Shown piece by piece: positions 10,686-54,925 of a DNA stretch of 64,000 bases. The stretch spans positions 23,818-87,817 of the forward strand of contig JBFLWW010000002.1 of the NCBI GenBank assembly GCA_040757475.1, given 5' to 3'. The position numbers and the translations under genes were made by a program. The notes under the pieces are model-generated. The model was not told the DNA's origin and did not search any database. It saw nothing but the letters and a program-made list of their open reading frames with translations. The first letter of the stretch is position 1; every line of letters begins with the position of its first letter. Source of the DNA: Nitrospirota bacterium. GTDB taxonomy: Bacteria; Nitrospirota; Thermodesulfovibrionia; Thermodesulfovibrionales; SM23-35.

Positions 10686-10734
10686 TACTACATCATTCTT
10701 ATTACAACTCCTGTATATGCTACTATGATATTAT

Positions 10735-16769: not shown

Positions 16770-17205
16770 AGCGGGATTCACGCTCCTTGAGCTGATAATT
16801 GTTATATTTATACTCTCACTTGTAATGGCTGTGGTCTTTCCATCTTTTTATGGAATTGTAGATGGAAGGCTTAAATCAGAGTCAGGTAAGATTGCGTCTT
16901 TATTAAGGTATCTGAATGATAGCGCAATCTCCAGAAAAGAAACATTTATACTTAAGATTAACCTTGATAGTAATACCTTCTTATGGGAAGGTCCTGATGG
17001 TAAAAGGTCAGAAAGTTTCAATGGTCTTTTAGATATTTTTACAACCTCAACAGGAAGTGTCTCAAGGGGTGAGGTGATACTTTCTTTCGGTCCCCTCGGC
17101 ATTCAGGAGAATCTCAGAATCCACCTGAGGGATAAAGATAAGGAAATGGCGGTTACGCTTAACCCGATGAGTGGAAGGGTAAAAATAATTCAAAGTTCAA
17201 AATGA
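16738..17205 (+). CDS. gspH: Minor pseudopilin GspH
   Basis: The leader is MQTLRTGSYSKAG/FTLLELIIV. It overlaps the gspG 3' end. Its C-terminal IQSSK* and its stop codon lie inside a repeat element. Confidence 0.6.
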   Translation: MQTLRTGSYSKAGFTLLELIIVIFILSLVMAVVFPSFYGIVDGRLKSESGKIASLLRYLNDSAISRKETFILKINLDSNTFLWEGPDGKRSESFNGLLDIFTTSTGSVSRGEVILSFGPLGIQENLRIHLRDKDKEMAVTLNPMSGRVKIIQSSK

Positions 17206-17265
17206 AAAATTCAAAATTAAGGAATTCCAAAATTTTTAATTTTAAATTTTTAATTTTAAATTCCC
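17189..17265 (+). repeat. 77-nt AT-rich inverted heptamer element (11 units, core TTAAGGAATTCC), copy 1
   Basis: TTCAAAG TTCAAAA TGAAAAA TTCAAAA TTAAGGA ATTCCAA AATTTTT AATTTTA AATTTTT AATTTTA AATTCCC. It spans the gspH stop and gspI start. Confidence 0.9.
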
Positions 17266-17609
17266 GCCCACATCAGGTGAGCGGGTTCGCCCTCCTCGAG
17301 GTTATGATTGCAGTTGGCATTGTTGGGGCCCTCCTTGTTACCCTCATATATACATTGAATTATAATCTTGGCATTGCTGAAAGACACGAGACTATTACTG
17401 TTGCAGCTATACTTGCAAGAGATAAAATTTCCGAGATAGAGAAAATGCCTGTTGATTCCAGAGGAGAATTCCCTGAACCTTATTCTGATTATCAATATGA
17501 GACCACAGTCAAAGAATCCGTATATCCTAACATATCAGAAATATCAGTTGTTGTTAGAAAAGGGAAAGAAGAGGTTAAACTCAGCGAATTAATTCAAAGT
17601 GCAAAATGA
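17202..17609 (+). CDS. gspI: Minor pseudopilin GspI (repeat-encoded long leader)
   Basis: ATGA overlap with the gspH stop. The cleavage motif is QVSG/FALLEVMIAVGIV. The first ~22 codons lie in the 77-nt repeat element. Confidence 0.6.
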   Translation: MKNSKLRNSKIFNFKFLILNSRPHQVSGFALLEVMIAVGIVGALLVTLIYTLNYNLGIAERHETITVAAILARDKISEIEKMPVDSRGEFPEPYSDYQYETTVKESVYPNISEISVVVRKGKEEVKLSELIQSAK

Positions 17610-17669
17610 AAAATGCAAAATTAAGGAATTTCAGAATTTTTAATTTTGAATTTTCAATTTTAAATTTCC
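17593..17669 (+). repeat. 77-nt AT-rich inverted heptamer element, copy 2 (about 88% identical to copy 1)
   Basis: TTCAAAG TGCAAAA TGAAAAA TGCAAAA TTAAGGA ATTTCAG AATTTTT AATTTTG AATTTTC AATTTTA AATTTCC. It spans the gspI stop and gspJ start. Confidence 0.9.
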
Positions 17670-25044: not shown

Positions 25045-26705
25045 AACTTAGAGAACTTCTTCACGGTTGTGATTATATTGACTCCTCACTTGTCACTTGT
25101 CACTTGTCACTCGATACGGACATCTCAGGTGTAGCTTATGATTCGAGAAAGGTGAAAGAAGGTTACCTGTTTGTGGCGATAAAAGGTGAGAAGCACGATG
25201 GCCATGATTTCATCGGTGATGCAATTAAGCGAGGAGCAGTGGCAATAGTGCATGAAAAAACAGTAACGAGTTACGAGTTACGAGTTACGAGTAAAGAAAA
25301 AGACTTGTCACTTGTCACTCGTCACTTGTCACTTATTCAGGTCAAAAACAGCAGAAAGGCACTTGCCTGTATCGCAAATAATTTTTACGGGAGGCCCTCT
25401 GAGAGGCTCACAGTTATAGGTATAACCGGTACAAACGGGAAGACAACGACAACATATCTCCTTAAATCTATACTCGAATCGTGGGGAAAAGAAATCGGTC
25501 TTATTGGAACAATACAATACATGATAAAGGACAAAAGTTACTCTGCATTATATACAACACCCGAGGCATTAGAGTTCCATGGACTTTTAAGAGATATGCT
25601 CTTATCAGGGTGCACGCATATCATATCAGAGGTCTCATCACACGCCCTTGCTCAGAGCAGAGTGGATGGGACTGTTTTTAAGACTGTAGCGTTTACAAAT
25701 CTCACAAGGGAACATCTGGACTTCCATAAAACTTTGGAGGATTACTTCAGGGCAAAGGAGAGACTGTTTAGAGAGCTTCTCGATAAGGATGGGACCTCTG
25801 TAATAAATCTCGATGACCTATATGGAAAAAGACTGATCTCTTCACTCAGCAGCGGGGTCCCCAGAAAGTCGCAAGACTTTCTGGGGCGTATATTAACATA
25901 CGGCCTTGAGACAGGAGCAGACATTATGGCGAGGGATATCAATAGTTCATTCAAAGGGTTGAGGTTCAAAATAGCATTCCGTGGCAGGAATTATAATATC
26001 TCATCTGCTCTGATGGGTCTACCAAATGTATACAATATTATGTCTGCAGCTGGGGCATCAATCTCGATAGGAGTTCCATGGGATATAATTCTTGAGGGTA
26101 TAAAAAATTTAGGCACTGTTACAGGCAGATTCGAAAAGGTTAATCTTGATCAGAATTTTCTGTGTATCGTTGATTATGCCCATACAGAGGATGCCCTCGA
26201 GAGGCTGATATATACAGCGAGGGAACTTATAAATAAGCCTTTAGTCAATAGTCATCAGTCATTAGTGAAAGACAGTAACAAGTTACGAGTTACGAGTAAC
26301 AAGTATGAAGATAAGAACTTGTCACTTGTTACTTGTCACTCGTCACCCCGTATTATTACTGTCTTTGGGTGTGGAGGAGATAGAGATCGCAGTAAGAGAC
26401 CGGGGATGGGTACAGTAGCAACAAGGCTTAGCGATTTTGTGATTATCACCTCTGACAATCCGAGGTCTGAAGACCCGAACAAAATAATTAGAGAGATTGA
26501 AGCAGGAGCTATAAGGAGAAACTATATAATCGAACCTGACAGAGCAGAGGCAATCAAAAGAGCTATTATGCTGGCAGGCGAGGGAGATATTGTCCTTGTT
26601 GCAGGCAAGGGACATGAGGATTATCAGGAAATTAAAGGTGTAAGGTATAGATTTAATGACAGGGAAATATTAGAAAAGGCGATCAAACAAAGAATAAAGT
26701 CGTAA
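25041..26705 (+). CDS. murE: UDP-MurNAc-tripeptide synthetase MurE, carrying three in-frame repeat insertions
   Basis: Contains DSRKV, GITGTNGKTTT, DYAHTEDAL and GCGGDRD. The ORF is 554 aa versus roughly 490-500 aa typical. Confidence 0.9.
   Translation: MKLRELLHGCDYIDSSLVTCHLSLDTDISGVAYDSRKVKEGYLFVAIKGEKHDGHDFIGDAIKRGAVAIVHEKTVTSYELRVTSKEKDLSLVTRHLSLIQVKNSRKALACIANNFYGRPSERLTVIGITGTNGKTTTTYLLKSILESWGKEIGLIGTIQYMIKDKSYSALYTTPEALEFHGLLRDMLLSGCTHIISEVSSHALAQSRVDGTVFKTVAFTNLTREHLDFHKTLEDYFRAKERLFRELLDKDGTSVINLDDLYGKRLISSLSSGVPRKSQDFLGRILTYGLETGADIMARDINSSFKGLRFKIAFRGRNYNISSALMGLPNVYNIMSAAGASISIGVPWDIILEGIKNLGTVTGRFEKVNLDQNFLCIVDYAHTEDALERLIYTARELINKPLVNSHQSLVKDSNKLRVTSNKYEDKNLSLVTCHSSPRIITVFGCGGDRDRSKRPGMGTVATRLSDFVIITSDNPRSEDPNKIIREIEAGAIRRNYIIEPDRAEAIKRAIMLAGEGDIVLVAGKGHEDYQEIKGVRYRFNDREILEKAIKQRIKS
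25080..25114 (+). repeat. Heptamer array (GACTCCT, 3x CACTTGT, CACTCGA) in the murE N-terminus
   Basis: Read directly from the sequence. It translates DSSLVTCHLSLD. Confidence 0.9.
25262..25338 (+). repeat. Composite inverted heptamer element (5x AGTTACG-type, spacer unit, 5x CTTGTCA-type) in murE
   Basis: 11 units on one lattice. It translates VTSYELRVTSKEKDLSLVTRHLSL. Confidence 0.9.
26241..26345 (+). repeat. Composite element of 15 heptamers = 35 codons in murE
   Basis: 4x TAGTCA-type, 5x AGT[TA]AC[AG]-type, a spacer, then 4x CTTGT[CT]A-type units. It translates LVNSHQSLVKDSNKLRVTSNKYEDKNLSLVTCHSS. Confidence 0.9.
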
Positions 26706-26714
26706 TATCTATTA

Positions 26715-27512
26715 TTGGACATAGTGATGGTTATAGAATTAGAAGGGCTAAAGGTCTTCTATGATTTTGCTGGTGAAGGATATACCGTTATCTTGATGCA
26801 TGGGTGGGGAGGAGAAGCAGCAAGTTTCAAGCCAGTTTTTGACTATCTGTCAAAAAGCTATAAGGTATACGCTTTCGATTTTCCAGGATTCGGTAAGAGT
26901 GAACTTCCTATAGAGCCATGGGGAACTGAAAACTATGGGAAATTTGTTACAAAATTCTTTAATGCAATGAATATAAAAAAGGCAAATATAATAGCCCATT
27001 CTTTTGGAGGAAGGGTAGCTATATGGCTGGCTGCGAATTTTCCAGAGACGGTGAATAAACTGGTACTTGTTGACAGTGCTGGTATTAAGCCAAAGAGGAC
27101 ATTAAAGTACCATATTAAAGTGGCAGTTGCAAAGGCTAGCAAGAGAATTTTATCCCGCTCTATCTTTGGCAAATATGGTGAACGCTTACTTAATGGTTTA
27201 TATCGTTTAATTGGCTCTAAAGATTATCAACAGCAAATTGGTATTATGAGGGCTACTCTTGTTAAGGTTGTCAATGAAGACCTAAGATGGCTCTTGTCAA
27301 AGATTATAGCACCTACATTACTTATATGGGGAGAAGATGATAAAGATGTGCCCTTATCTTATGCAAGGATAATGGAAAAAGAGATAAGGGATGCTGGTCT
27401 GGTTGTTCTTAAAGGTGCAGGCCATTTTTCATACCTGGATAGATTTTCAGATTTCTGTTTAATTGTTTCAAAATTTTTTGGTGATATAAAAGGTGTTAAG
27501 AATTATGGCTGA
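26715..27512 (+). CDS. Alpha/beta-fold hydrolase inserted in the dcw cluster
   Basis: Contains HGWGG, the nucleophile elbow AHSFGG, an acid residue in GEDDKDVP and a His in GAGHFS. The start is uncertain (TTG 26715 or ATG 26727). Confidence 0.75.
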   Translation: MDIVMVIELEGLKVFYDFAGEGYTVILMHGWGGEAASFKPVFDYLSKSYKVYAFDFPGFGKSELPIEPWGTENYGKFVTKFFNAMNIKKANIIAHSFGGRVAIWLAANFPETVNKLVLVDSAGIKPKRTLKYHIKVAVAKASKRILSRSIFGKYGERLLNGLYRLIGSKDYQQQIGIMRATLVKVVNEDLRWLLSKIIAPTLLIWGEDDKDVPLSYARIMEKEIRDAGLVVLKGAGHFSYLDRFSDFCLIVSKFFGDIKGVKNYG

Positions 27513-28992
27513 TATTCTATTACCTATAATCGGTGTCATTACTATTGGAGCACTGCTGTTAATTACCATTTTAAGGCTTATTATGTTTCTACACATGCTT
27601 CAACTTGAAGGATATAGGAGTAAAAGATTTATAAAGTGGCTTATCAATAATCCTAATAAAATGTTGGCAGTTAGGACTATTAAAGAACCTAAAAAAAAGT
27701 TAGTTTTCACTGCAAGGGCTACAAGGCTTTTTATCTTGATGCTGATGTTGTTAAGCTCTGTGATATACAATCTCTCAAGGCTTTCTCTAATTATCTTTAT
27801 ATCAGGGATATTCTTAACTAGTTTCTTTGCTCCGTTTTTACTTATATTGTCTAATATCCTGATTTATCCCTTGGAGACAGTAATCAACAATCTATATCTT
27901 AGATCAGCAAAGAAAAAGATCAAAAAGCTGAAGCCTAAGGTAATTGCAATTACGGGGAGTTATGGGAAAACAAGCACAAAAGACTTTCTGGCACATATTC
28001 TCTCAACAAAATATAAGGTTTTGAAAGTCCCGGGGAGTTTCAACACCCCGATGGGTATTTGCAAGATAATAAGGGGTGAGTTAAGACCAGAGCATGAGAT
28101 ATTTATTGTTGAAATGGGAGCGAGAGAGAAGGGTGATATAAAAGAGTTGTGCGAACTACTTAAACCAGAGGTCGGTACAATTACGGCCATAGGTCCACAG
28201 CATCTCGAAATGTTTAAAACCATCGAGAACATAATAGATACAAAGTATGAACTAGTAGAATCATTGCCTGCTAATGGGATAGCAGTATTTAATAATGACG
28301 ATGAAAATTGCAGGCACCTCGCTAATAGGACATATGATAAAAAGGTTCTACGTTATGGAATTAATAAAAATAACAAGAAACTACATCTTATGGCAATGGA
28401 TATTTCTACGAGTAATCAGGGAATTTATTTCTTAGCACAGAATAGTAGGGGAGACGCCGTGCCTTTTCATTGCAAACTTCTGGGTAAGCATAGTGTTTAT
28501 AATATATTAGCAGCAGCTACAGTTGCTTTAGAATTTGGAATGTCCCTCAATGAAATTGCAGAAGCTATAAAGATATTAGAACCTACACCTCATAGGTTAC
28601 AGTTGATTCGCGGGGCAGGAGGGGTAACTGTAATAGATGATGCCTTTAATGCAAATCCAGTAGGTGCAAAGATGGCATTGGAAGTGCTGGGTGAGTTTAA
28701 AGGTGGAAGAAAGGTCTTAGTGACCCCAGGGCTTGTAGAGCTTGGTGAGAGGGAGTATGAGGAGAATAAACAGATAGGAATTACAGCAGCTAAGATATGT
28801 GATTTTGTATTTTTGATTGGGCCTAAGAGGACAAAGCCTATTTTTGAGGGCTTGAAAGAAGCTGGGTTCCCCGAGACAAATATATTTGTCGAAAAAAGTC
28901 TAAATGCTGTAACTGGGAAATTTAAGAGTATATTAAAGGCTGGCGATGTCGTCTTGTTTGAGAACGACCTGCCGGATACATACAATGAGTAA
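27493..28992 (+). CDS. murF: MurF-like Mur ligase with an N-terminal multi-TM extension replacing the usual N-domain
   Basis: About 140 N-terminal residues form hydrophobic helices plus an LQLEGY motif. These are followed by ITGSYGKTSTKD (P-loop), EMGAR and DDAFNANP. Confidence 0.7.
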   Translation: MLRIMADILLPIIGVITIGALLLITILRLIMFLHMLQLEGYRSKRFIKWLINNPNKMLAVRTIKEPKKKLVFTARATRLFILMLMLLSSVIYNLSRLSLIIFISGIFLTSFFAPFLLILSNILIYPLETVINNLYLRSAKKKIKKLKPKVIAITGSYGKTSTKDFLAHILSTKYKVLKVPGSFNTPMGICKIIRGELRPEHEIFIVEMGAREKGDIKELCELLKPEVGTITAIGPQHLEMFKTIENIIDTKYELVESLPANGIAVFNNDDENCRHLANRTYDKKVLRYGINKNNKKLHLMAMDISTSNQGIYFLAQNSRGDAVPFHCKLLGKHSVYNILAAATVALEFGMSLNEIAEAIKILEPTPHRLQLIRGAGGVTVIDDAFNANPVGAKMALEVLGEFKGGRKVLVTPGLVELGEREYEENKQIGITAAKICDFVFLIGPKRTKPIFEGLKEAGFPETNIFVEKSLNAVTGKFKSILKAGDVVLFENDLPDTYNE

Positions 28993-30181
28993 ATTAAAAA
29001 TAGGCGTTATATTTGGTTCCCGTTCCGTTGAACATGAGGTTTCAATCATTACTGCTCATCAGGTTATGCAGGCTATTGATAAGGATAAGTATGAAATTGT
29101 GCCAATTTACATTACAAAAGGGGGATATTGGGTTACTGGCAAAAAACTATTTAATCTTGAAAACTTTAAAGATTTGCCATCATTAATTTCTGATTTAAAG
29201 AAAGTTTATATTGCACCTGACCCCTCTGTTAAATCATTGGTCATGACATCTAAAAGGTGGTTTAAAGGGGCGTCGTTAAAAATAGATGTAGCCTTTCCCC
29301 TCGTTCATGGGACATGTGGTGAAGATGGCACATTACAGGGGCTTCTGGAGTTAGCCAACATACCTTATGTTGGTGCAGGTGTCCTTGGCTCGGCTCTTGG
29401 AATGGATAAAATTGCTATGAAAGCAGTTTTTAAAGAAAACCATTTGCCTGTAGCGAACTATGTCTGGTTTTTAAGGAATGAATGGGAAGATAAGCAAGAA
29501 AAAATAATTGCTAAAATAGAGACAAATCTTAAATACCCTCTTTTTGTAAAACCTGCAAATCTGGGTTCAAGCATAGGCATTTCAAAGGCTAAAAACAGAG
29601 AAGATTTGATGTACTCCGTGGAAGTTGCCAGCCATTATGACAGACGTTTGATAGTAGAGGAGTCGTTAGAGGATGCTATAGAAATAAATTGTTCTGTACT
29701 TGGCAACGAAGACCTAATTCCATCGGTGTGCGAACAACCTGTTTCATGGGAAGAATTCTTAAATTATGATGAAAAATATTTGAGGGGCGGTAAGACCTCA
29801 GGTTTGAAAGGTGCGGATCGCCGAATACCTGCTCCAATTTCTCAAGAGCTTACAGAAAAGATTCAGAAATTAGCTATTGATACATTCAGGGCTGTTGATT
29901 GTCGTGGTATTGCCAGAGTAGATTTTCTTGTTAATACAGAGAAGAGCAAGATATTTATAAACGAAATAAACACCATACCCGGTTCTATCTCTTTTTATTT
30001 ATGGGAGGCTACTGGCATCAAATTCTCAGAACTGGTTGATAGGCTTGTTGATTTAGCTATAGATGCATATAAAGAAAAAAGTAAGACAACTTATTCCTAT
30101 GATTCAAAATTACTGAAACACATTAGTAGCCCTTCCCCAAAGTTAGGTATTAGGGGTATGAAAAAGGTTCTGGAGGCGTAA
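28985..30181 (+). CDS. ddl: D-alanine--D-alanine ligase (long form, 398 aa)
   Basis: Starts MSKLKIGVIFGSRSVEHEVS. Contains HGTCGEDGTLQGLLE, an ATP-grasp fold and NEINTIPG. The ATG overlaps the murF stop. Confidence 0.85.
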   Translation: MSKLKIGVIFGSRSVEHEVSIITAHQVMQAIDKDKYEIVPIYITKGGYWVTGKKLFNLENFKDLPSLISDLKKVYIAPDPSVKSLVMTSKRWFKGASLKIDVAFPLVHGTCGEDGTLQGLLELANIPYVGAGVLGSALGMDKIAMKAVFKENHLPVANYVWFLRNEWEDKQEKIIAKIETNLKYPLFVKPANLGSSIGISKAKNREDLMYSVEVASHYDRRLIVEESLEDAIEINCSVLGNEDLIPSVCEQPVSWEEFLNYDEKYLRGGKTSGLKGADRRIPAPISQELTEKIQKLAIDTFRAVDCRGIARVDFLVNTEKSKIFINEINTIPGSISFYLWEATGIKFSELVDRLVDLAIDAYKEKSKTTYSYDSKLLKHISSPSPKLGIRGMKKVLEA

Positions 30182-31267: not shown

Positions 31268-32281
31268 ATGAGAAAGTCATTAGTCATTAGTCATCAGTCA
31301 TCAGTCATAATAAGGAAAAGATTATTATTTATTGTAGTCTTTTTACTTCTCACTTCTCACTTTTCACTTTCAACTTTGTTTGCTGATGAGATCCATTCCC
31401 GTGCCGCCCTTGTTATGGATGCGTCAACAGGAAAGGTGCTTTATGCAAAAAATCTAAACCTTAAGCTTCCTCCTGCGAGTACAGCAAAGCTGATGACTGC
31501 TATTGTGGCAATTGAAAAGGCAGACCTCAATGATGTTATTACGATAAGCAAAAGAGCAGTCAGTGTTGCTCCAACAAAGGCTGGATTTAAGGCAGGAGAA
31601 AAGGTGACAATTGAGACGCTTCTTTATGCAGCGCTTCTCAGGTCTGCAAATGATGCTGCTACAGCCCTTGCAGAAGCTGTAGCTGGTTCAGAAGCTAAGT
31701 TTGTCCAGCTTATGAATAGAAAGGCGATTGCTATTGGAGCAAAGGATACAAAATTCATAAACCCACATGGACTTCCTGGCCCTGACCAGTATATTACAGC
31801 CCATGACCTTTCAAAGATAATGAGACATGCGCTCAAATATCCCAGACTAAAAGAGATCATCGGGACTCGTGTTGCAGAGGTCTCAATAAAAAGGGGGAAG
31901 TCCATATCTCTTGAAAACACAAACAGACTTTTGTGGGTTGACGAATACCTTGTGGGTGGTAAGACAGGATATACCCGTAAAGCAAGGCATTGTTTTGCAT
32001 GTGCCTGTAAACGCAAAAAGAATACAGTTGTAGTTGCCCTCCTCGGCAGTCCAAGCAGGGAAAACCTATGGAAAGAAGCAGAATTACTGATTGATAAGGG
32101 ATTCCAGATAATGGCAAATAAAGAAGAACCTGTCATCTATTTTACAAAGGCAGATTATGATGCACTTAATGTGAAGAAGGCATCCTATAAGAAAAGTTCA
32201 AAGTTCAAAAGTTCAAAGTTAAAGGCTTCATCACTTAAGTATAGGGTTGCAAAGAAAGGTGAGGATGGGAATAAAGGATAA
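31268..32281 (+). CDS. dacA: D-alanyl-D-alanine carboxypeptidase (S11, PBP5/6-like) with repeat-encoded signal peptide and tail
   Basis: Contains SxxK (ASTAK), SxN (SAND) and KTG (GKTGYT). ATG 31268 follows AAGGTGAGGTGA. Confidence 0.8.
   Translation: MRKSLVISHQSSVIIRKRLLFIVVFLLLTSHFSLSTLFADEIHSRAALVMDASTGKVLYAKNLNLKLPPASTAKLMTAIVAIEKADLNDVITISKRAVSVAPTKAGFKAGEKVTIETLLYAALLRSANDAATALAEAVAGSEAKFVQLMNRKAIAIGAKDTKFINPHGLPGPDQYITAHDLSKIMRHALKYPRLKEIIGTRVAEVSIKRGKSISLENTNRLLWVDEYLVGGKTGYTRKARHCFACACKRKKNTVVVALLGSPSRENLWKEAELLIDKGFQIMANKEEPVIYFTKADYDALNVKKASYKKSSKFKSSKLKASSLKYRVAKKGEDGNKG
31274..31308 (+). repeat. Heptamer array (3x AGTCATT, 2x AGTCATC register) at the dacA N-terminus
   Basis: aagtcat tagtcat tagtcat cagtcat cagtcat, which translates KSLVISHQSSVI. 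Confidence 0.9.
31340..31374 (+). repeat. Heptamer array (TTCTCAC/TTTTCAC) forming the dacA signal-peptide h-region
   Basis: tttttac ttctcac ttctcac ttttcac tttcaac, which translates FLLLTSHFSLST. Confidence 0.9.
32193..32221 (+). repeat. AAAGTTC array in the dacA C-terminal tail
   Basis: aaagttc aaagttc aaaagttc aaagtta, which translates SSKFKSSKLK. Confidence 0.85.
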
Positions 32282-33674
32282 AAAAGTAACCGTAGTAGGC
32301 CTTGCCAGGAGCGGCGTAGGCGCAGCAAACCTTTTATCAGAACTCGGAGCTGATGTAACAGTAACAGACAAAAAAACAGAATATGAATTAAAGGATTTTG
32401 TAAAAAAGCTTAATCCTTCTATAAAACGTGCATTAGGAGGACACCCGGAAGATATATTCACATCAGCTGATATGATAGTCGTCAGCCCTGGTGTTCAGCT
32501 TGACACTCCACCCATTACTAATGCAAAAGCAAAAGACATCCTAATAATTGGCGAGCTTGAACTTGCATATCAGATAATAAGTTCAAAGTTCAAAATTCAA
32601 AGTTCAAAGTTTCCAAAATTTTTAGCAGTAACAGGTACAAATGGGAAGTCTACTACTACAACATTACTCGATCTTATGCTAAAGAAATGTGGGTTCGAGA
32701 CCCTTTTAGGAGGGAATATAGGGAATGCCCTGACCTCGTCACTTCTCACTTCTCACTTCTCACCTGATTACATTGTTGCTGAGGTATCGAGCTTTCAGCT
32801 TGAGTCAATAAAGGATTTCAGGCCAAAGGGTGCTGCTATCCTTAACATTACTCCTGATCACCTTGACCGATACTACTCACTCGAAGAATACAGAGATGCA
32901 AAGGCAAAGATATTTGAAAACCAGCAGGAGGACGATTTTCTGGTAATTAATGCAGATGACCCTGAAACAATGAAAGTTCAAAGTTCAAAGTTCAAAGTTC
33001 AAAGTGAAAAACCAAAAGTCTTTTACTTTAGCCGTAAGAAAGAGGTCAAGGGTATTTATTTCAAAGATGGACGAATCTATTGTAATTTCCCTGACTCCTC
33101 ACTCCTCACTCCTCACTTCCCACTTATAAAGGCTGATGAGATAAAGATAAAGGGTGTCCATAACCTGGAGAATGCCATGGCTGCTTCGGCCATGGCTCTC
33201 CTTGCAGACTGCCCCCTAAAGGCAGTGATAGATTCCTTGAGAGAATTTCCTGGTCTTGAGCACAGGCTTGAATTTGTCAGGGAGATAAATGGCATCCGAT
33301 ACATCAATGATTCAAAAGGGACTAATGTAGGTGCAGTCATCAAGTCACTTGAAAGCTTTACGAAGCCGATTGTTTTAATCGCGGGTGGAAGAGATAAGGC
33401 AGGAGATTTTTCGTTATTGGGACATTTAGTGAGAGAAAGGGTGAAGGCAATTATATTAATTGGTGAGGCAAGTGAAAAGATAAAAAAAGCCCTCGGTGAC
33501 CTTACAGAGACAGTGATGGCAAAAGACTTAAGAGATGCTGTAATAATATCACATAACAAGGCAGTGAATGGCGATGTAGTCCTGCTTTCGCCGGCATGTG
33601 CAAGTTTTGACATGTTTATGGACTTCGAGGACAGAGGAAGACAGTTTAAAGATATTGTATGGAGTTTGAAATGA
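32265..33674 (+). CDS. murD: UDP-MurNAc-L-Ala--D-Glu ligase MurD with four in-frame repeat arrays
   Basis: Contains VVGLARSG, VTGTNGKSTT, EVSSFQLE and DSKGTN. The start is probably ATG 32265, overlapping the dacA end. Confidence 0.9.
   Translation: MGIKDKKVTVVGLARSGVGAANLLSELGADVTVTDKKTEYELKDFVKKLNPSIKRALGGHPEDIFTSADMIVVSPGVQLDTPPITNAKAKDILIIGELELAYQIISSKFKIQSSKFPKFLAVTGTNGKSTTTTLLDLMLKKCGFETLLGGNIGNALTSSLLTSHFSPDYIVAEVSSFQLESIKDFRPKGAAILNITPDHLDRYYSLEEYRDAKAKIFENQQEDDFLVINADDPETMKVQSSKFKVQSEKPKVFYFSRKKEVKGIYFKDGRIYCNFPDSSLLTPHFPLIKADEIKIKGVHNLENAMAASAMALLADCPLKAVIDSLREFPGLEHRLEFVREINGIRYINDSKGTNVGAVIKSLESFTKPIVLIAGGRDKAGDFSLLGHLVRERVKAIILIGEASEKIKKALGDLTETVMAKDLRDAVIISHNKAVNGDVVLLSPACASFDMFMDFEDRGRQFKDIVWSLK
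32581..32611 (+). repeat. GTTCAAA array in murD (before the P-loop)
   Basis: gttcaaa gttcaaa attcaaa gttcaaa, which translates SSKFKIQSSKF. Confidence 0.9.
32739..32766 (+). repeat. TCACTTC array in murD (after GNIGNAL)
   Basis: 3x tcacttc plus tcacctg, which translates SLLTSHFSP. Confidence 0.9.
32973..33007 (+). repeat. AAAGTTC array in murD
   Basis: 4x aaagttc plus aaagtga, which translates KVQSSKFKVQSE. Confidence 0.9.
33093..33125 (+). repeat. CACTCCT array in murD
   Basis: gactcct cactcct cactcct cacttcc cactt, which translates DSSLLTPHFPL. Confidence 0.9.
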
Positions 33675-34864
33675 AATATGATAAGTGGATGCTTTTTGTC
33701 ACAATTCTCCTTATAGGTTTTGGTGCACTTATGATATACAGCTCCACATCTGTTATCACACCTGTGCTTGCAAAGAAAAATGTCACAGAATTTTATTATT
33801 TCAAAAGGCATATGTTTACGATGCTTATCGGTTTTGGGATTATGTTTTTTGCCTACAGGCTAAAACTTTCTACAATTAAGAAGATGGCCGTGCCCCTCCT
33901 GATTTTTTCTTTTGTATTACTAATATTAGTTTTTGTGCCTGGCATAGGTGTCTCTGCCAATAATGCAAGGAGGTGGATAAGACTCTGGCCCTCTACATTC
34001 CAGCCATCAGAGCTTGTTAAGCTCTCCATGGTCATATTTCTTGCAAAGTATATGTCAATGTTAGAGTATAGAACAGACAGCCTTGTCTCTTTTATAAAAC
34101 CTGTTCTTGTAATGGCGGTATTTCAGGTGGTTTTTCTCAAACAGCCTGATTTTGGGTCTGTGATAAGCCTTATGCTTCTGACATTTATAATGTTATTTCT
34201 TTCAGGCATAAGGCTCAGATATCTTGCATATCTGTCAGTGCTTGCCCTGCCTATAATATACAAACTTATCATGGAGCCTTACCGCCTCAAAAGGGTTATG
34301 GCATTTCTCGATCCGTGGAAAGACCCTCAGGGAAGCGGATTCCAGCTTGTACAATCTTTTATAGCCCTCGGCAGCGGAGGGCTAACAGGCGTTGGACTTG
34401 GAAAGTCCAGACAGAAATTAGCCTTCCTACCCGAATCCCATACGGATTTCATATTCTCTCTAATCGGGGAGGAACTCGGCTTTATAGGTGTGCTGGTCGT
34501 TATAACGCTTTTCTTGTTCTTGTTTATCAAGGGGATATCCATTGCAAACAGGTCAAGGGACAAGTTTGTCTATTATCTTGCATTCGGACTTTCACTGATG
34601 ATCTCTTTGCAGGCGCTAATTAATTTTGCAGTTGCAACAGGCATGGTACCAACAAAAGGTTTGCCACTGCCGTTTATTAGCTATGGGGGTTCATCTCTCT
34701 TTGTGAATATGGCTGCTATAGGGATACTGCTTAATATATCGAAGGGAGAGGAGAACAGAAAGATTGCAGATATAGACCCAAAAATGATTGTGAGGAGGAA
34801 GGCCCGATTAAAAATTCAAAATGCAAAATTCAAAAATCAAAATTACGGAATTCCTTTATTTTGA
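33659..34864 (+). CDS. ftsW: Peptidoglycan glycosyltransferase FtsW (SEDS) with repeat-encoded C-terminal tail
   Basis: SEDS motifs are present (RWIRLWPSTFQPSE, LPESHTDFIF, PLPFISYGGSS). Confidence 0.9.
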   Translation: MEFEMKYDKWMLFVTILLIGFGALMIYSSTSVITPVLAKKNVTEFYYFKRHMFTMLIGFGIMFFAYRLKLSTIKKMAVPLLIFSFVLLILVFVPGIGVSANNARRWIRLWPSTFQPSELVKLSMVIFLAKYMSMLEYRTDSLVSFIKPVLVMAVFQVVFLKQPDFGSVISLMLLTFIMLFLSGIRLRYLAYLSVLALPIIYKLIMEPYRLKRVMAFLDPWKDPQGSGFQLVQSFIALGSGGLTGVGLGKSRQKLAFLPESHTDFIFSLIGEELGFIGVLVVITLFLFLFIKGISIANRSRDKFVYYLAFGLSLMISLQALINFAVATGMVPTKGLPLPFISYGGSSLFVNMAAIGILLNISKGEENRKIADIDPKMIVRRKARLKIQNAKFKNQNYGIPLF

Positions 34865-34888
34865 ATTTTTAATTTTAAATTTTAAATT
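34808..34888 (+). repeat. AT-rich inverted heptamer element (core TTACGGAATTCC) at the ftsW 3' end
   Basis: About 12 units in register. The ftsW stop (34862-64) lies inside the element. The left arm translates RLKIQNAKFKNQNYGIPLF*. Confidence 0.9.
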
Positions 34889-34894
34889 GAAAGT

Positions 34895-41509: not shown

Positions 41510-41538
41510 TCCCCCCTTCTGTTATCTATTAATCTTAA

Positions 41539-41657
<119 letters not shown>

Positions 41658-41685
41658 TTTTTTATAGAAATAACATCAGAATATT

Positions 41686-41736
41686 AAAAATTGCAAATTG
41701 AAAATTTTAAATTTCAAATTTAAAATCTAAAAATTC
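41686..41736. repeat. AAATTNN heptamer array between 5S rRNA and tRNA-Ala
   Basis: aaattgc aaattga aaatttt aaatttc aaattta aaatcta aaaattc. Confidence 0.8.
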
Positions 41737-41812
41737 TGGTGGAGGTGAACGGGATCGAACCGATGACCTCCTGCTTGCAAAGCAGGCGCTCTCCCATCTG
41801 AGCTACACCCCC
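41737..41812 (-). tRNA. tRNA-Ala (anticodon UGC), CCA encoded
   Basis: Reads GGGGGTGTAGCTCAGATGGGAGAGCGCCTGCTTTGCAAGCAGGAGGTCATCGGTTCGATCCCGTTCACCTCCACCA. The G3:U70 Ala identity pair is present. Confidence 0.95.
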
Positions 41813-41849
41813 ACTCAAAAATTTGCAAAGCAAATTTTTGAGTTTAAAA

Positions 41850-41926
<77 letters not shown>

Positions 41927-48122: not shown

Positions 48123-49214
48123 GTGATGTTAATCCTTGGAATAGATACCTCCTGTGATGATACATGTGCGTCAGTCGTCGAAGACGGGGTCAGAATAATC
48201 TCCAATATCGTCTCGACCCAGACAGAGATACATAAGAAATACGGTGGCATTGTGCCTGAGCTTGCATCAAGAAGACACATAGAGATGATATGGCCTGTTG
48301 TTGATGAGGCAGTGAAAGGCGCAGGGATTGAACCTGAAGACCTGTCTGCTATAGCAGTATGCCATGGTCCAGGACTGATAGGTTCCCTCCTCATAGGCTG
48401 TTCCTTTGCAAAGGCGATATGCTATTCAAAAAATGTCCCTCTTGTTACTGTAAACCACCTTGAGGGTCATATATTCTCTTGTTTTTTAAGGGAAGGGGGT
48501 TTCATGGAGGAAACTCCGTTTCCCCCATGCACTCCTGAATTTCCATTCCTATCCCTCATCGTCTCAGGAGGCCACACATGCCTCTACAGGGTTGATGGCT
48601 TTGGTAGATATAGAGAACTCGGCAGAACACGGGATGATGCTGCAGGTGAGGCATATGACAAGGTCTCAAAACTCCTTGGTCTCGGATACCCTGGCGGCCC
48701 TGTTATAGATAAACTCGCACAGGATGGAAACCCTGATGCAGCAGATTTCCCGAGGCCGTATCTGCCTGAATCCTTTGATTTCAGCTTCAGCGGACTTAAA
48801 ACCGCAGTGCTGAATTTCGTAAAAACAACAGTCATTAGTCAACAGTCATTAGTCAGTAGTCAAAAAACCAGTGACCAATGTCCAATGACCAATGACCAAT
48901 CCCACTTGTCACTGGCGGATATTGCTGCATCATTTCAGGCATCTGTAGTAGATGTACTTGTAAAGAAAACAGAATGGGCAGTAAAAAAAGAACGGATAAA
49001 AAGGGTTGCCCTCTCAGGTGGAGTCTCTGCAAACAGTGAATTGAGAAAAGGGATGAAGGGAATGGGTGATGCGATAGGAGTGGAGATATTTATACCTCCT
49101 GTATCATTGTGCACAGATAATGCTGCCATGATTGCTGGAGCTGGATATCATCATTTCAATGCCGGCAATATTGCAGGGCTTGATCTCAATCCACAGGCGT
49201 ATCTGCCGCTATAA
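48123..49214 (+). CDS. tsaD: tRNA N6-adenosine threonylcarbamoyltransferase TsaD with an 84-nt in-frame repeat insertion
   Basis: Contains ILGIDTSCDDT, HLEGH, SGGHT and FSFSGLKT. The ORF is 363 aa versus about 335-340 aa typical. Confidence 0.9.
   Translation: MMLILGIDTSCDDTCASVVEDGVRIISNIVSTQTEIHKKYGGIVPELASRRHIEMIWPVVDEAVKGAGIEPEDLSAIAVCHGPGLIGSLLIGCSFAKAICYSKNVPLVTVNHLEGHIFSCFLREGGFMEETPFPPCTPEFPFLSLIVSGGHTCLYRVDGFGRYRELGRTRDDAAGEAYDKVSKLLGLGYPGGPVIDKLAQDGNPDAADFPRPYLPESFDFSFSGLKTAVLNFVKTTVISQQSLVSSQKTSDQCPMTNDQSHLSLADIAASFQASVVDVLVKKTEWAVKKERIKRVALSGGVSANSELRKGMKGMGDAIGVEIFIPPVSLCTDNAAMIAGAGYHHFNAGNIAGLDLNPQAYLPL
48827..48910 (+). repeat. 12-unit (84 nt = 28 codons) composite inverted heptamer element inside tsaD
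   Basis: aacagtc attagtc aacagtc attagtc agtagtc aaaaaac cagtgac caatgtc caatgac caatgac caatccc acttgtc. Confidence 0.9.
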
Positions 49215-49216: not shown

Positions 49217-49244
49217 AGTTTCTTGAGTTACAAACCAAGAAACT
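49217..49244 (+). terminator. Hairpin after tsaD
   Basis: AGTTTCTTG (49217-25) pairs with CAAGAAACT (49236-44) around a 10-nt loop. There is no U-tract. Confidence 0.3.
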
Positions 49245-49271
49245 CAATGAACTCAACAAACTCAATAAACT
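49241..49271 (+). repeat. 9-nt tandem repeat (AACTCAATG / AACTCAACA / AACTCAATA / AACT)
   Basis: Read directly from the sequence. It lies just upstream of a TTGTAA-18-TATAAT promoter (49271-49300) for thiD. Confidence 0.6.
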
Positions 49272-51525: not shown

Positions 51526-52099
51526 ATTCTCCTGTGCAGCACCACGGGTGGAGATACCCGTATATGAAGGAGTTGATGTAAAGGATGTCCTTTCTTCGAA
51601 AAACCGTATTTCAGCCATAGAGACCACATTTTCCATCATCTTTGAAAAAAATGATACTGAGATAAGAGGAGATGCAACACTGAATATCTCCCGTAATGGA
51701 AACCTGAGCCTGCGTGTCTATTCCCTTGGATTTCTTGCACTTGAACTCACATCTGATAATGGCATTATAAAAAGCAATCCGAGTCTTGACAGGAACAAAA
51801 ACGCAATCCTTACATCCGGCCTGAAAGACTGCCTTTTCTGGTGGGATATAAAAGACTTTGAGATTGATGAAAGAGATGATACCTACATCCTTAAAAATCT
51901 TTCGAGAAAGATATGGATAGACAGAAAAACAATGCTTCCCCGGAAACAGATAATCTCCCTTGAAGATGGCAGAGAATTAAAGGTGTATTATGAAGGTTCT
52001 GAGAAGGAAGGTGATATCTGGTATCCTGCAAAAATGAGGATAGAACTCTCTAAATATTCTGTGACATTGAGGATTAAGGGTATATCATTCACTATTTAA
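51440..52099 (+). CDS. Outer-membrane lipoprotein, LolB/DUF4292-like (putative); signal peptide wholly repeat-encoded
   Basis: Starts MRNGKWEVGNGRLRFYFLLLTSYFLLLTLFSC with an LFSC lipobox. The family call is weak. Confidence 0.45.
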   Translation: MRNGKWEVGNGRLRFYFLLLTSYFLLLTLFSCAAPRVEIPVYEGVDVKDVLSSKNRISAIETTFSIIFEKNDTEIRGDATLNISRNGNLSLRVYSLGFLALELTSDNGIIKSNPSLDRNKNAILTSGLKDCLFWWDIKDFEIDERDDTYILKNLSRKIWIDRKTMLPRKQIISLEDGRELKVYYEGSEKEGDIWYPAKMRIELSKYSVTLRIKGISFTI

Positions 52100-52903
52100 A
52101 CCGAGGTCTACTGCTACAGTCTTTATTATCGAACCGTTTATAACCTCTGTTTTAAACAGATAACCCTCAAGTAGTGCATTATCACAGATAGTGTTTATCA
52201 GCCTCGGCACACCTTTTGAGTAGTTGTAAATAAGCATTATAGCCTCATCCGAGAATATATCTCTATTGCATCCCGCAATTCTAAGTCTGTGTTTTATGTA
52301 ATCCCTTGTATTATCCTCAGAGAATGACTTCAGTTTTACTCTAACAGCCACCCTCTGTTTAAGAGGTTCATCTAAAGAGAGGACATCTTCAAGCTCTGTC
52401 AGGCCAAAAAATACAAAATTTATCATCTTTCCTTCAGAGATCTCCATATTCAGAAGCCCCCTGAATTCCTCCATAAGCTCCCTCGAGCTCAGCATCTGGA
52501 CCTCATCAATAAGCACAACTGCTGTTTTCCCATGTTCATTTATCTCGTGTAGCCTTTTATACATCTGACTGAGAAGTTCAATCTTATTTTCCTTCAGGTC
52601 CTTTACACCAAGCTGTATCGCAAATTTTCTGAGCAGCCACTCTGCGCTGACAGACGAGTGAATTACTACAAGGAGTGCTGCCTCATATATTTCCTCATTC
52701 AACTCCTCAAGGAGCCTCCTTGCAAGTGTCGTCTTTCCGGTCCCTGCATCCCCTATAACAACAGCAAGGCCTTTTTTGGTATCTATGGCATATCTCAACC
52801 TTATAAGGGCCTCTGAGTGCTGGATACTGTTATAATAAAACCTGCTGTTAACCACATTCGAGAATGGGTGTTCTTTAAGGTTATAGTATTCTAAATAGTC
52901 CAT
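52085..52903 (-). CDS. ExeA/GspA/MshM-like AAA ATPase
   Basis: Starts YYNLKEHPFSNV. Walker A is GDAGTGKTT and Walker B is VVLIDEVQ. 272 aa. Confidence 0.75.
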   Translation of the reverse strand: MDYLEYYNLKEHPFSNVVNSRFYYNSIQHSEALIRLRYAIDTKKGLAVVIGDAGTGKTTLARRLLEELNEEIYEAALLVVIHSSVSAEWLLRKFAIQLGVKDLKENKIELLSQMYKRLHEINEHGKTAVVLIDEVQMLSSRELMEEFRGLLNMEISEGKMINFVFFGLTELEDVLSLDEPLKQRVAVRVKLKSFSEDNTRDYIKHRLRIAGCNRDIFSDEAIMLIYNYSKGVPRLINTICDNALLEGYLFKTEVINGSIIKTVAVDLGLNSE

Positions 52904-52909
52904 ATCTTC

Positions 52910-54814
52910 TTATAGATAGGAGATCCTCTCCTTCTTGCCTTTTACCTTTTCCTGCTGTGGCACCTTTATCACTGCCCTAATCTTATTTATTTTATCAGAT
53001 ACAGCTCTGAATCCTCTATTCCACTCATATATCTCGGTGTATGAATCAAGTGCCTCCTTAAGGTTTCCGTTCCTCTCATAGGCTTCAGCAAGATTATATC
53101 TCATTGCCCAGTAAAACTCATCCTTCTTTTCCATGTTCTTAATGGCATTGTTCAGGGCGTCGATAGCAAGGGAATAAAGACCCTTTTCCATATAACAGAT
53201 GCCGAGCATACTGGATGCCCGTATAAACATGTCTGGGTCAGTCAGCGATAGCTGGAATTCCCTTATTGCATCATCTATAAGCCCTGTTTCCTTGTATGCC
53301 ATACCGAGATTGTAATGTGTCTTATCAGCGAGCCTCGGGTCCTCAGGATATATCTCAAAGGCCTCTTTAATTATATGCTCACTTTTTTCAACATCACCTA
53401 TCCTCCTGTAGAGCTCATACAGGATAAGGCATTCTGTTACCGCCATCTCTTTATCAGCTATATTCACATAAAGAGACTTAAGTTTTAAGTGGACATCAAT
53501 GTTTTCAGGGTCTTTCAGCCTGAGGTCATCAAGAATAACCCTTGCCTTTTCATAAAGACCATAGCTAAGAAATATCTCTGCCTCTTCAAGTATCTCATTA
53601 AATGTTTTTTCGCCTGTTATCGAAATACGCTCCACACCGCTCTCTTTTTCGAGTTCATTCACTCTGGCACTGAGGGAATCATCAAATCTTATCTGCAGGG
53701 CATCCTTATAACAGTTGAGGGCCTCCTTTTGCATGCCCTTTGCTACGAGCACATCACCGAGGGCAACCAGTTCGTTATATGCCTGGATGTTTTCACCGAG
53801 CTGTCTATAAAGAGACGCCAGTCTCTTGCATGTCTCCACTGGGTCTATATCTTTGAAGGATGTCAGGAGTTTTATAGCATCATCGTATTTTCCGCCAAGT
53901 ATCATTTCATCAAGCACAGGGAGATACTCTGCCCATGCCTTTTCTCTCTCACCTTCCCTGATATAGATTTCTCCGAGAAATCTCTTCACATTGATATTAG
54001 ATGGTTCTATCTCAGTGACCTTTCTGAGACATTCCTTTGCCTTATCAAACCTCCCGTCCACCATATAAATCTCAGTACACCTCAGAAGTATGTCTGCATC
54101 ATGGGGTAAAAGTGTAGCAGCATCTTCCATATGTTTAGTAGCTCGTTTGATATCACCGGCCTTCTCGTATAAATAACTGAGACCCATGAGTGCCTCTTTG
54201 TTTAAAGGATGGACATCAAGGACTTTTCTGAAATATCCCTCTGCCTTTCCTATATCACCCTTTTCATCATAAAGCCATGCAACATTAAGATATTCCTTTA
54301 CTGCCTCTGATTTCAGGCCTTCATCTATAAATATCTCCGCTACCTTTTCTTTAAGAGGTATATCGGTTGGAGAAAGGTTAAGTATTCTATTATATACGTC
54401 AAGGAGTTTTTCCTTCCTGTCCTCCGCTGACAGACCATTAACCACTGCCAAATAATACTTTATGGCATCTTTATAATACTTAATAGCATCTGTTGTGATA
54501 CCCTTTTCCACGCTGAGTTCTCCCAGTGCAAAGAGGGCATCAGCATCCGAGGGATTTATATTCAGTATCTTTTTATAAAGTGCAACAGACTTCAGGGAAA
54601 AACCCTCTTCCCTGAAGTATTTTGCAGCCCTGTGAAAAGAATCTACCGCATTCTTCCTGTCACCCCTTTTAAGATAGAGGTCGCCGACGGTATTATAGAC
54701 ATTACCATCAGGGGACTCATTTATAAGTTTTTCCCACTCTGCAATAGCCTTATCTACCTGACCCCTCGCAAGATACTTCTGGGCCTCTTTTATTATGGCT
54801 GCTTTATCTGGCAT
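52910..54814 (-). CDS. Multi-TPR repeat protein (MshN-like partner of the ExeA-like ATPase)
   Basis: About 635 aa of TPR units. It lies 6 nt upstream of the ATPase gene on the same strand. The start is probably MPDKAAII at 54814. Confidence 0.65.
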   Translation of the reverse strand: MPDKAAIIKEAQKYLARGQVDKAIAEWEKLINESPDGNVYNTVGDLYLKRGDRKNAVDSFHRAAKYFREEGFSLKSVALYKKILNINPSDADALFALGELSVEKGITTDAIKYYKDAIKYYLAVVNGLSAEDRKEKLLDVYNRILNLSPTDIPLKEKVAEIFIDEGLKSEAVKEYLNVAWLYDEKGDIGKAEGYFRKVLDVHPLNKEALMGLSYLYEKAGDIKRATKHMEDAATLLPHDADILLRCTEIYMVDGRFDKAKECLRKVTEIEPSNINVKRFLGEIYIREGEREKAWAEYLPVLDEMILGGKYDDAIKLLTSFKDIDPVETCKRLASLYRQLGENIQAYNELVALGDVLVAKGMQKEALNCYKDALQIRFDDSLSARVNELEKESGVERISITGEKTFNEILEEAEIFLSYGLYEKARVILDDLRLKDPENIDVHLKLKSLYVNIADKEMAVTECLILYELYRRIGDVEKSEHIIKEAFEIYPEDPRLADKTHYNLGMAYKETGLIDDAIREFQLSLTDPDMFIRASSMLGICYMEKGLYSLAIDALNNAIKNMEKKDEFYWAMRYNLAEAYERNGNLKEALDSYTEIYEWNRGFRAVSDKINKIRAVIKVPQQEKVKGKKERISYL

Positions 54815-54877
54815 CTGTATATTATTGAAAGGTATCACAATCAGCAACAAGTGTCAATAATCAGCTCTTAACTATTC

Positions 54878-54907
54878 TTGACTTCTAAATAATCTCTCGG
54901 ATAAGAT
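54878..54907 (+). promoter_or_regulatory. Sigma70-like promoter upstream of rpiB
   Basis: TTGACT, an 18-nt spacer, then TAAGAT. Confidence 0.4.
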
Positions 54908-54925
54908 ACTAAAATTGAGGTTAAA

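Follow-up and report, generated by a model that had tools for sequence, protein, structure and literature searches.

Tandem repeats of a 7-nt unit have been known from cyanobacteria since 1990, and from 2007 onward a general excess of them has been recognized in certain bacterial genomes. The short tandemly repeated repetitive (STRR) heptanucleotide sequences of filamentous cyanobacteria were reportedly described by Mazel et al. in 1990, and very small mobile repeats in Nostoc punctiforme, which measure 21-27 nt and are termed small dispersed repeats (SDRs), are said to have been found by Elhai et al. in 2008 to be associated with hairpins and tandem heptameric repeats. Here, a stretch of 64,000 nt from a Nitrospirota bacterium (contig JBFLWW010000002.1), referred to as the window, was analyzed with respect to four heptamer arrays in its murD gene, which encodes UDP-N-acetylmuramoylalanine--D-glutamate ligase. 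The arrays are termed sites 1-4, and all positions refer to the window unless another locus (L with a number) is named. Purine-rich units of the AGT type are designated R and pyrimidine-rich units of the TCACT type are designated Y. The four arrays are probably (about 0.6) in-frame heptanucleotide microsatellites of a repeat system that extends across a clade of the Thermodesulfovibrionales and not a device specific to MurD, with an arrangement in two pairs that has no function.

STRRs are intergenic 7-bp repeats, often in inverted arrays able to form hairpins, for which no function is known (PMC2670836), and heptamer simple sequence repeats (SSRs) in Nostoc and Xanthomonas are over-represented intergenically and under-represented in coding regions (PMC4692102). 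The arrays described here share with STRRs that they are short tandem 7-bp arrays of many dispersed unit types and that inverted pairs able to form hairpins occur, in the window in murE and tsaD and not in murD. In contrast to STRRs, 88% of them lie in open reading frames (ORFs), where they keep the frame, essential cell-wall genes included, and the host belongs to the Nitrospirota and not to the Cyanobacteria. For long SSRs in prokaryotes a genome-specific heptanucleotide excess was reported and slippage was proposed (Mrazek et al., 2007, as relayed in PMC4679880 and PMC4692102). The genome-specific enrichment of period 7 over other periods is also found here; however, ORFs are filled here by a period not divisible by three, which forces stop-free units and phase-specific variants with a super-period of 21 nt. 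The TAACTGA direct repeats of marine Beggiatoaceae, some Cyanobacteria and Bacteroidetes consist of a single unit, are mostly located intergenically upstream of start codons and were proposed to have a role in translational regulation (PMC4679880). They have in common with the arrays of the window that they are heptameric direct repeats, the distribution of which is shaped by stop codons in one orientation while the reverse orientation is translatable, but here many unit types exist, which are intragenic and form R/Y hairpin arms. Rickettsia palindromic elements (RPEs) are in-frame elements of about 100-150 bp in protein-coding genes and possess a family consensus (reviewed in PMC10969869). 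As for RPEs, repeated palindromic DNA is found here in frame in housekeeping genes that are unrelated to each other, where the fold permits it; unlike RPEs, it comprises 25-75 nt of tandem heptamers without consensus beyond the unit core and it turns over much faster. The SDRs are resembled by GC palindromes of 21-30 nt that are located inside the heptamer arrays of relatives, although the window has no such palindromes and the MurD arrays are plain heptamers.

Heptanucleotide repeats have so far been treated as intergenic curiosities, while here they are mainly present in genes, including those of essential enzymes of peptidoglycan synthesis. What is novel is mainly the intragenic placement and the occurrence in another phylum; a literature search for heptamer repeats in Nitrospirae/Thermodesulfovibrionia returned nothing, which is no proof of novelty. 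The arrays are relevant to annotation, alignment, phylogenomics and structure prediction of Nitrospirota metagenome-assembled genomes (MAGs).

Heptamer arrays of the window and the four sites in MurD

The window contains 29 arrays of period 7, compared with 0.15-0.35 in Markov-shuffled sequence, and the periods 5, 6, 8 and 9 are near background. In the Nitrospirota relatives L001-L011 and L029, 0.9-7.9 period-7 arrays were found per 10 kb, while L012 and L013, which are more distant, and about 50 loci from other phyla have 0-1.4 per 10 kb, mostly 0. In 513 kb of DNA from the clade 185 arrays were detected, 163 of which (about 88%) are inside ORFs of at least 450 nt and not intergenic. Among the host genes in the window are those of GspD, the pseudopilins, MurE (with six arrays), a D-Ala-D-Ala carboxypeptidase, MurD, FtsW, MurG, LolA, TsaD and an ATP-binding cassette (ABC) ATPase, and the host taxa of MurD and related loci are assigned to Nitrospirota, Thermodesulfovibrionia or Thermodesulfovibrionales. 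The composition of the units is biased: AGT or ACT is present in 62% of them (24% expected) and TCA in 49% (14% expected).

The murD product matches the Pfam families MurD-like_N, Mur_ligase_M and Mur_ligase_C as well as PDB MurD sequences (E=4e-75), its AlphaFold model scores 0.70-0.79 against MurD structures in the template modeling (TM) comparison, and it is identical to a MurD in the NCBI entry 'MAG: Nitrospirota bacterium', which is encoded on a 104-kb contig. The original prediction described four separate in-frame arrays of two unit types in this gene, with the first pair bracketing the block FLAVTGTNGKST...GGNIGNAL; both statements were borne out by Tandem Repeats Finder (TRF) and translation of the ORF, and the peptides quoted there match (Table 1). 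All four arrays keep the frame of the murD ORF. Site 1 is positioned between the N-terminal domain and the P-loop strand, and site 2 is preceded by GGNIGNAL. Sites 1 and 2 are spaced by 122 nt, sites 3 and 4 by 78 nt. The order R,Y,R,Y is expected by chance in about 6% of cases from the type frequencies and is not itself improbable.

Table 1. Location of murD, its four arrays and related repeats (window numbering unless a locus is given)
Feature	Position	Strand	Evidence and details
murD (UDP-N-acetylmuramoylalanine--D-glutamate ligase), host of all four arrays	32265..33674	+	ORF, Pfam, PDB, fold
Site 1, R, (AAGTTCA)x4.7	32579..32611	+	TRF, 92% matches; peptide SSKFKIQSSKF
Site 2, Y, (TCACTTC)x3.6	32739..32766 (TRF 32739-32763)	+	TRF, 100% matches; peptide SLLTSHFSP
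Site 3, R, (AAAGTTC)x4.7 then AAAGTGAAAAA	32973..33016 (TRF 32973-33005)	+	TRF, 100%; peptide KVQSSKFKVQSEK
Site 4, Y, (CCTCACT)x4.0	33090..33125 (TRF 33090-33117/33124)	+	TRF, 95% matches; peptide DSSLLTPHFPL
AAAGTTC array, C-terminus of D-Ala-D-Ala carboxypeptidase gene (Pfam Peptidase_S11)	32192..32224	+	TRF
N-terminal region of carboxypeptidase gene, R AGTCATT and Y ACTTCTC/ACTTTTC, 27 nt apart	31273..31377	+	
murE module 1, (AGTTACG)n, 10-nt loop, (ACTTGTC)n	25261..25336	+	fold z=-4.7
murE module 2, second copy of module 1	26274..26346	+	86% identity including the loop, unrelated flanks
tsaD in-frame hairpin, CAACAGT/AGTCATT then TGACCAA units	48826..48900	+	TRF, Pfam TsaD, fold z=-3.0
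GC palindromes of relatives	L005 3922-3946, 10863-10887; L001 6026-6046; L003 10363-10383; L067 3081-3101		

Compared with solved MurDs, site 1 adds 10 aa, site 3 adds 6 aa and site 4 adds about 9 aa (reference PDB 3lk7 for sites 1 and 4). Site 2 takes up a variable segment that is native to MurD. It replaces a TEEI.K... segment that all clade orthologs possess, the conserved EEI.K being lost in the window, and it is shorter here than in every clade ortholog. Site 3 has the same length as in seven relatives in a gap-free alignment and is, judged from this alignment, an older clade-wide insertion of 6 aa, the units of which were overwritten in place. In the AlphaFold model site 1 is a low-confidence extension of helix 97-112, site 2 is the loop 161-168 after helix 152-160, site 3 is located within helix 233-245 and site 4 is the loop 275-284 between two strands. 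All sites are low-confidence or surface helix/loop segments of the model, where in-frame insertion is tolerated by the fold, and the frame is kept in all orthologs. The proposal that all four are loop insertions holds in part: the sites are variable or gapped positions of other MurDs, but only sites 1 and 4 add length, the 6 aa of site 3 being found across the clade, and sites 1 and 3 are helix sites.

The orthologs comprised MurD loci with one genome per species, metagenome contigs and nine further ortholog loci; a metagenome scan with ortholog alignment yielded at least about nine clade members among 80 loci listed. In 28 aligned clade MurDs, which range from 466 to 564 aa, all length variation is concentrated at the four sites. 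Such arrays contribute strongly to the variability of conserved proteins in length and sequence. The sites contain heptamer peptides such as RSQKSEV, VTSYELQVTS and SLNSGLNSS or GC-rich palindromes (PPLLRGGFEGG, MTGTVPILPPLAGKSGTVP). That orthologs already contain the segments had been named in the original prediction as an outcome against it. They do have arrays at the same four positions, but units and lengths differ, and it is, from the alignment, the four positions that are conserved and not their sequences.

The turnover is most obvious in comparison with L005/L029, which show 91% DNA identity to the window over 20 kb. Nearly all large indels are located at array sites, the contents of which are replaced wholesale. 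At site 1, 30 nt of array are absent in L005, i.e., this nearest relative has no array there, and L002 has the same unit as the window. At site 2, L005 carries a complete hairpin with the R arm CGTAAGG and the Y arm ACGCCTC, 53 nt longer than the segment in the window, and at site 4 its Y array is interrupted by a 30-nt GC-rich palindrome, a second copy of which is found in the L005 murE. The site-level indels between close relatives are multiples of 3 (30, 53 minus compensating changes, 30 and 36 nt), and the boundaries of the 30-nt site 1 insertion and of the other indels relative to L005 show no target-site duplications. Site 3 is of equal length in L005 and reads AAAGTTG AAAGTGA AAAGTTG AAAGTGA AAAGTAA; in relatives AAAGTGA is mixed with AAAGTTA, and in the window AAAGTTC occurs four times in a row before AAAGTGA. 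The six or seven substitutions are all toward one unit, which argues for homogenization and not for independent mutation; the alignment indicates that site 3 was recently homogenized in place to AAAGTTC, by slippage turnover or conversion.

Units are also shared locally. Pairs of window arrays not more than 2 kb apart share units (Hamming distance of 1 or less) in 22% of cases, compared with 10.5% for more distant pairs, and sharing within a genome exceeds that between genomes (p=0.0045). The AAAGTTC array at the C-terminus of the carboxypeptidase gene is located about 350 nt upstream of site 1, is not followed by a Y array and is common to L005 (9873-9908). One stop-free R unit may have spread locally from this dacC-like C-terminus to sites 1 and 3, and the likeness of the two R arrays of MurD would be due to such local spread and homogenization of AAAGTTC.

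Across 29 orthologs the orientation differs by site: R 9 and Y 2 at site 1, Y 11 and R 7 at site 2, where the R arrays are the 5' arms of complete hairpins, R 13 and Y 0 at site 3, and Y 9 and R 2 at site 4. R arrays encode peptides rich in K, S, Q, E and V, and Y arrays peptides rich in S, L, T, H, F and P. The protein may filter which orientation survives at each site, i.e., R at the helix sites 1 and 3 and Y in the loops of sites 2 and 4. As judged from one model and four sites, the succession R,Y,R,Y would then exist because the protein sets the orientation that is kept at each site.

In relatives, GC-rich palindromic mini-elements of 21-30 nt, CCGGCCTCGCT..GCGAAGCGGGGC and CCCCCCTTTANTAAAGGGGGG, keep the reading frame and are located within heptamer arrays or between them, MurD sites 1 and 4 being among these places, and they behave like very small mobile repeats. 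A search of the window that allowed up to 3 mismatches found none of them.

Unit types, stop codons and compact hairpins

As 7 is not a multiple of 3, an array of at least three units is translated in all three phases, so that in an ORF any unit in which a circular phase reads TAA, TAG or TGA is lethal unless this phase is edited. This constraint is reflected in the units: the reverse complement contains a stop in 71 of 85 stop-free coding units, compared with 33% expected. In predicted hairpins within ORFs, 20 of 44 1x1 mismatches are unrepairable on either arm without a stop triplet (3.7% expected), and 50 of 88 single repairs would make a stop, the background being 19%. In murE, the R unit AGTTACG replaces the perfectly pairing AGTGACG, which contains TGA, and the Y unit CGTCACT replaces CGTAACT, which contains TAA. 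At MurD site 3 of the relatives, AAAGTGA and AAAGTTA alternate in such a way that T is positioned where G would give an in-frame TGA, and this T is invariant in eight genomes. It was shown that the arms mismatch at positions at which a perfect complement would contain a stop triplet. The reading of 7-nt arrays in three frames explains the choice of units, the 21-nt super-periods and the regular mismatches of the arms.

The two unit types of MurD can be derived along the same lines. TCACTTT is a Y unit that is often found in the clade, and its complement AAAGTGA contains TGA; in AAAGTTA the TGA is removed and a TAA is present, while AAAGTTC is stop-free in all phases. AAAGTTC may be regarded as AAAGTGA altered twice, G to T removing TGA and A to C removing TAA, and TCACTTC and TCACTCC as T-to-C variants of TCACTTT. 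The unit types in MurD would accordingly be the R and Y forms of one family, complementarity of which is barred by the genetic code. This derivation is based on the unit network and the alignment of site 3 and not on an observed mutational series. The types are, as originally stated, not reverse complements of each other, with only 4/7 and 3/7 Watson-Crick matches in the best register, and the stop-codon constraint would be the reason.

The original prediction also raised a genome-wide association of the two array types at a preferred distance and orientation. Of 21 AAAGTTN arrays in the clade, 9 are followed by a TCACTYN array not more than 260 nt downstream, compared with a background of 2.6% (p about 1e-9, or about 1e-3 on independent sites), and an AAAGTTN array with TCACTYN upstream was found only once, namely at MurD site 2. 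The association and its downstream orientation were thereby confirmed, but the long distance in MurD is not general: the association arises from compact R-loop-Y hairpins with a spacing of 14-33 nt, and a spacing of 88-169 nt is found in MurD only.

Neighboring arrays that are 3-60 nt apart are arranged as RY in 22 cases and as YR in 3 cases in the clade sample, in which orthologous sites are recounted; collapsed to independent sites the numbers are about 10 and 2 (p about 0.04). Examples of the R units are AGTTACG, AGTCATT, AAAGTTA and CGTAAGG and of the Y units TCACTTG, TCACTTC, TCACTTT and TCACGCC. The reverse complement of an R-loop-Y hairpin is again R-loop-Y, so that the polarity is strand-independent and coding or gene orientation cannot produce it. 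Module 1 of murE folds into 6-bp helices with one 1x1 mismatch per heptad. Its R arm is absent in L005, as are both murE modules of about 75 nt, in spite of 91% identity, and L005 has other elements at the site of module 2. The presence of the second copy suggests a recent copying of the whole module within one gene. At the N-terminal site of the carboxypeptidase gene that contains the R and Y arrays in the window, six relatives carry an AAAGTT[ATC] array followed 25-38 nt later by a TCACTTT array. The tsaD units CAACAGT, AGTCATT and TGACCAA would correspond to the cyanobacterial STRR3 and the complement of STRR2; a literature search for the sequences of STRR units gave only unrelated lists of primers.

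The window murE also has a palindrome, CCCCAGAAAGTC-GCAA-GACTTTCTGGGG, at 25866-25905, and L005 has an (AAAACTC)n array in the same place.

Explanations for the paired arrangement

The MurD pairs give no sign of acting as pairs in the window. Folding gave z=-0.61 for 32570-32775 and z=+0.36 for 32960-33135, the arrays being unpaired with each other in the minimum-energy structure, while the compact pairs, which have the STRR-type hairpin trait, reach z=-4.7 (murE) and z=-3.0 (tsaD). L002, which has the site 1 and site 2 units of the window, gave z=+0.13. Covariation was tested by permutation of duplex energies, comparing self with cross-genome partners in 26 orthologs (earlier versions used 11 and 16 genomes). 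For sites 3 and 4 no covariation was detected in these orthologs (p=0.20) and self was never the best partner. For sites 1 and 2, p=0.03 was obtained, driven by L149 and L155, which have the same GC palindromes at both sites, and the control combinations 1-4 and 3-2 gave p=0.11-0.12. The window ranks 16-17 of 26 for self-complementarity. The complementarity seen in some genomes is attributed to the fact that each genome favors one unit family in both orientations. The original prediction had left the recurrent pairing unexplained; this no longer applies, as the units would be stop-constrained derivatives of a complementary pair and the MurD arrays show neither joint folding nor covariation. 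For the window, a long-range pairing of these arrays in the RNA was rejected based on the fold z-scores and the unpaired arrays. A structured cis-regulatory RNA in murD was likewise rejected, with z near 0, no pair-specific covariation and no Rfam match in murD.

In the explanation that we favor, the paired arrangement would be a by-product of the R/Y repeat system, of the stop constraint and of local homogenization at four tolerant sites. Arrays would arise and turn over by replication slippage and by templated copying between nearby arrays or arms, and selection would remove frameshifts, stops and disruptive positions, such that only four surface sites of MurD keep arrays. The two MurD pairs then need no special function. 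Several points weigh against this explanation. The creating mechanism is seen only by inference, and slippage alone leaves unexplained why only period 7 is enriched, why units are biased toward AGT/ACT and why the compact pairs have the polarity R-then-Y. The 86%-identical murE modules look more like the copying of an element than like slippage, and in L010 (fold z=-3.8) and L068 the segments at sites 3 and 4 show strong complementarity, which leaves room for arms that were born as inverted copies over a long range. The helix/loop rule is derived from one AlphaFold model, in which the predicted local distance difference test (pLDDT) is 53-85 at the sites, and from only four sites, and in several of the statistics orthologous sites were counted repeatedly.

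A specific molecular mechanism is suggested by the fixed 5'-purine/3'-pyrimidine polarity and by the fact that whole modules are copied. A bolder reading, which is possible although we rate it as doubtful, is that the clade has an active generator of tiny heptamer hairpin modules with a fixed polarity of a 5' AGT-type R and a 3' TCACT-type Y arm, of which the MurD arrays would be footprints. Such a generator might be a new, very small mobile element or a dedicated template switching that copies modules in frame into essential genes. If true, selfish DNA would continuously rewrite the surface loops of housekeeping enzymes, with arms sculpted by stop avoidance.

Among the rivals, the one that survives best, though it is unlikely, regards the MurD pairs as decayed long-range inverted repeats, which would have had complementary arms at birth, e.g., by intrastrand template switching 80-170 nt downstream, and the complementarity of which would later have been erased, in the window genome by stop avoidance and unit homogenization. 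It is consistent with L010, where site 3 (AGTCAAG/AGTCAGA) pairs with site 4 (TCTGACT) across about 125 nt and none of 200 shuffles equals the observed energy, with L067, where sites 3 and 4 pair in the minimum-energy structure (z=-1.9), and with ranks of 2-3 of 26 for the self-complementarity of sites 3 and 4 in L068 and L005. The order R-then-Y in MurD is also the polarity of the compact hairpins, and site 3 of the window has lost ancestral AAAGTGA units only recently. However, sites 3 and 4 do not covary and the controls give similar p values, the window and L002 (AAAGTTC/ACTYCTC at sites 1 and 2) rank only 16 and 23 of 26, and the sequence between the arrays is native MurD that is present in PDB MurDs.

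Ranked behind it, and improbable as well, is the possibility that the arrays are remnants of a mobile hairpin element, i.e., that R-loop-Y modules of about 75 nt inserted in frame at tolerant sites and that in-frame deletions left the R half at sites 1 and 3 and the Y half at sites 2 and 4. It shares ground with the favored explanation, the main difference being how the arrays originate. Complete R+Y hairpins do exist at site 2 in L003, L005, L009, L002 and L071 and at site 1 in L071 (L011 has Y-then-R there), and the absence of EEI.K from site 2 of the window is expected if a deletion took the R arm. The two murE modules that L005 does not have, and the 30-nt GC palindrome present twice in L005, once inside the site 4 array of MurD, fit a mobile element too. 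On the other hand, neither target-site duplications nor a terminal consensus were seen, and no candidate transposase was seen in the 64-kb window, the ORFs of which were not all scanned. The modules differ between genomes unit by unit without a single consensus, only the murE modules sharing a longer one, and site 3 is R-only in 13 of 13 orthologs with a detectable array, with conserved length.

A functional element, either an mRNA or DNA structure that paces translation around the P-loop or heptad peptides that modulate MurD, is very improbable. It would account for the orientation preference per site that is kept across the 29 orthologs although the units differ, for the conservation of the site 3 peptide SEKLKVKSEK across the clade and for the peptide repeat of 7 residues that results when a 7-nt repeat is translated in three frames. 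Yet no stable or conserved structure and no Rfam match was obtained, sites 1, 2 and 4 differ completely at 91% genome identity and can be swapped for unrelated GC palindromes, the same peptides are present in the unrelated carboxypeptidase, MurE, LolA and ABC ATPase, and the nearest relative has no site 1 array. A coiled-coil or heptad function of the peptide repeat was set aside, as the arrays correspond to about 1.5 heptads and are freely replaced between close relatives. A phase-variable contingency locus was also rejected: the host genes murD, murE and tsaD are essential and the frame is kept in every ortholog.

Although the source is a MAG and assemblers can be confused by short repeats, an assembly or binning artefact can practically be dismissed, as the four sites of MurD likewise carry arrays in about 29 genomes and metagenome contigs that were assembled independently and come from different studies, always with preserved reading frame, and as they measure 25-45 nt, which is below the length of sequencing reads.

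Further repeats and genes of the window

Arrays of the type (AAAGTTC/AAGGTTC)n are widespread in metagenomes of assorted organisms, where they are annotated as hypothetical proteins of 45-75 aa that contain FKVQSSK/FKVQGSR repeats, probably false ORFs that cover arrays between genes. Among the 25 matches to (SSKFKVQ)x6 in a protein database that were examined, none has a TCACTTC-type peptide; the matches are mostly such hypothetical ORFs and uninformative for arrays within genes.

The minus-strand genes of the window (about 11.5 kb) contain no period-7 array and the plus-strand genes (about 48 kb) contain about 24 (regions 1-11000, 52000-60000). Near 6-8 kb, at the divergence of gene orientation, the GC skew switches its sign. 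Together with the restriction of arrays to plus-strand genes, this switch may reflect an origin of replication or an influence of the strand on the arrays. A period-8 variant of AAAGTTC, (AAGTTCAA)x4, is present at 63368-63400 in frame in the ABC-transporter ATPase gene 63018-63734, and a period-9 array, (AAACTCAAT)x4.6, at 49232-49271 in the spacer after tsaD represents the only clear period in the window that is a multiple of three. Pairs of AT-rich heptamers (AATTCAA and AAATTTT types) are located at 17187-17667, 34807-34892 and 61356-61486, i.e., in pseudopilin genes, at the end of ftsW and intergenically before 61490. These are gene junctions and 3' ends, and the pairs may be terminator-like hairpins.

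At 41538-41926 of the minus strand, two tRNA genes come after a 5S rRNA gene, with no adjacent 23S gene in the window. Between these tRNA genes a 35-nt hairpin (CTCAAAAATTTGCAAAGCAAATTTTTGAG) is found, which is absent in L029. The division and cell wall (dcw) cluster carries an alpha/beta hydrolase gene (26715-27512) between murE and murF and a long ddl-like gene (28946-30181, 411 aa) between murF and mraY. Neither of these insertions is present in L147-L155, where ddl is located after murB.

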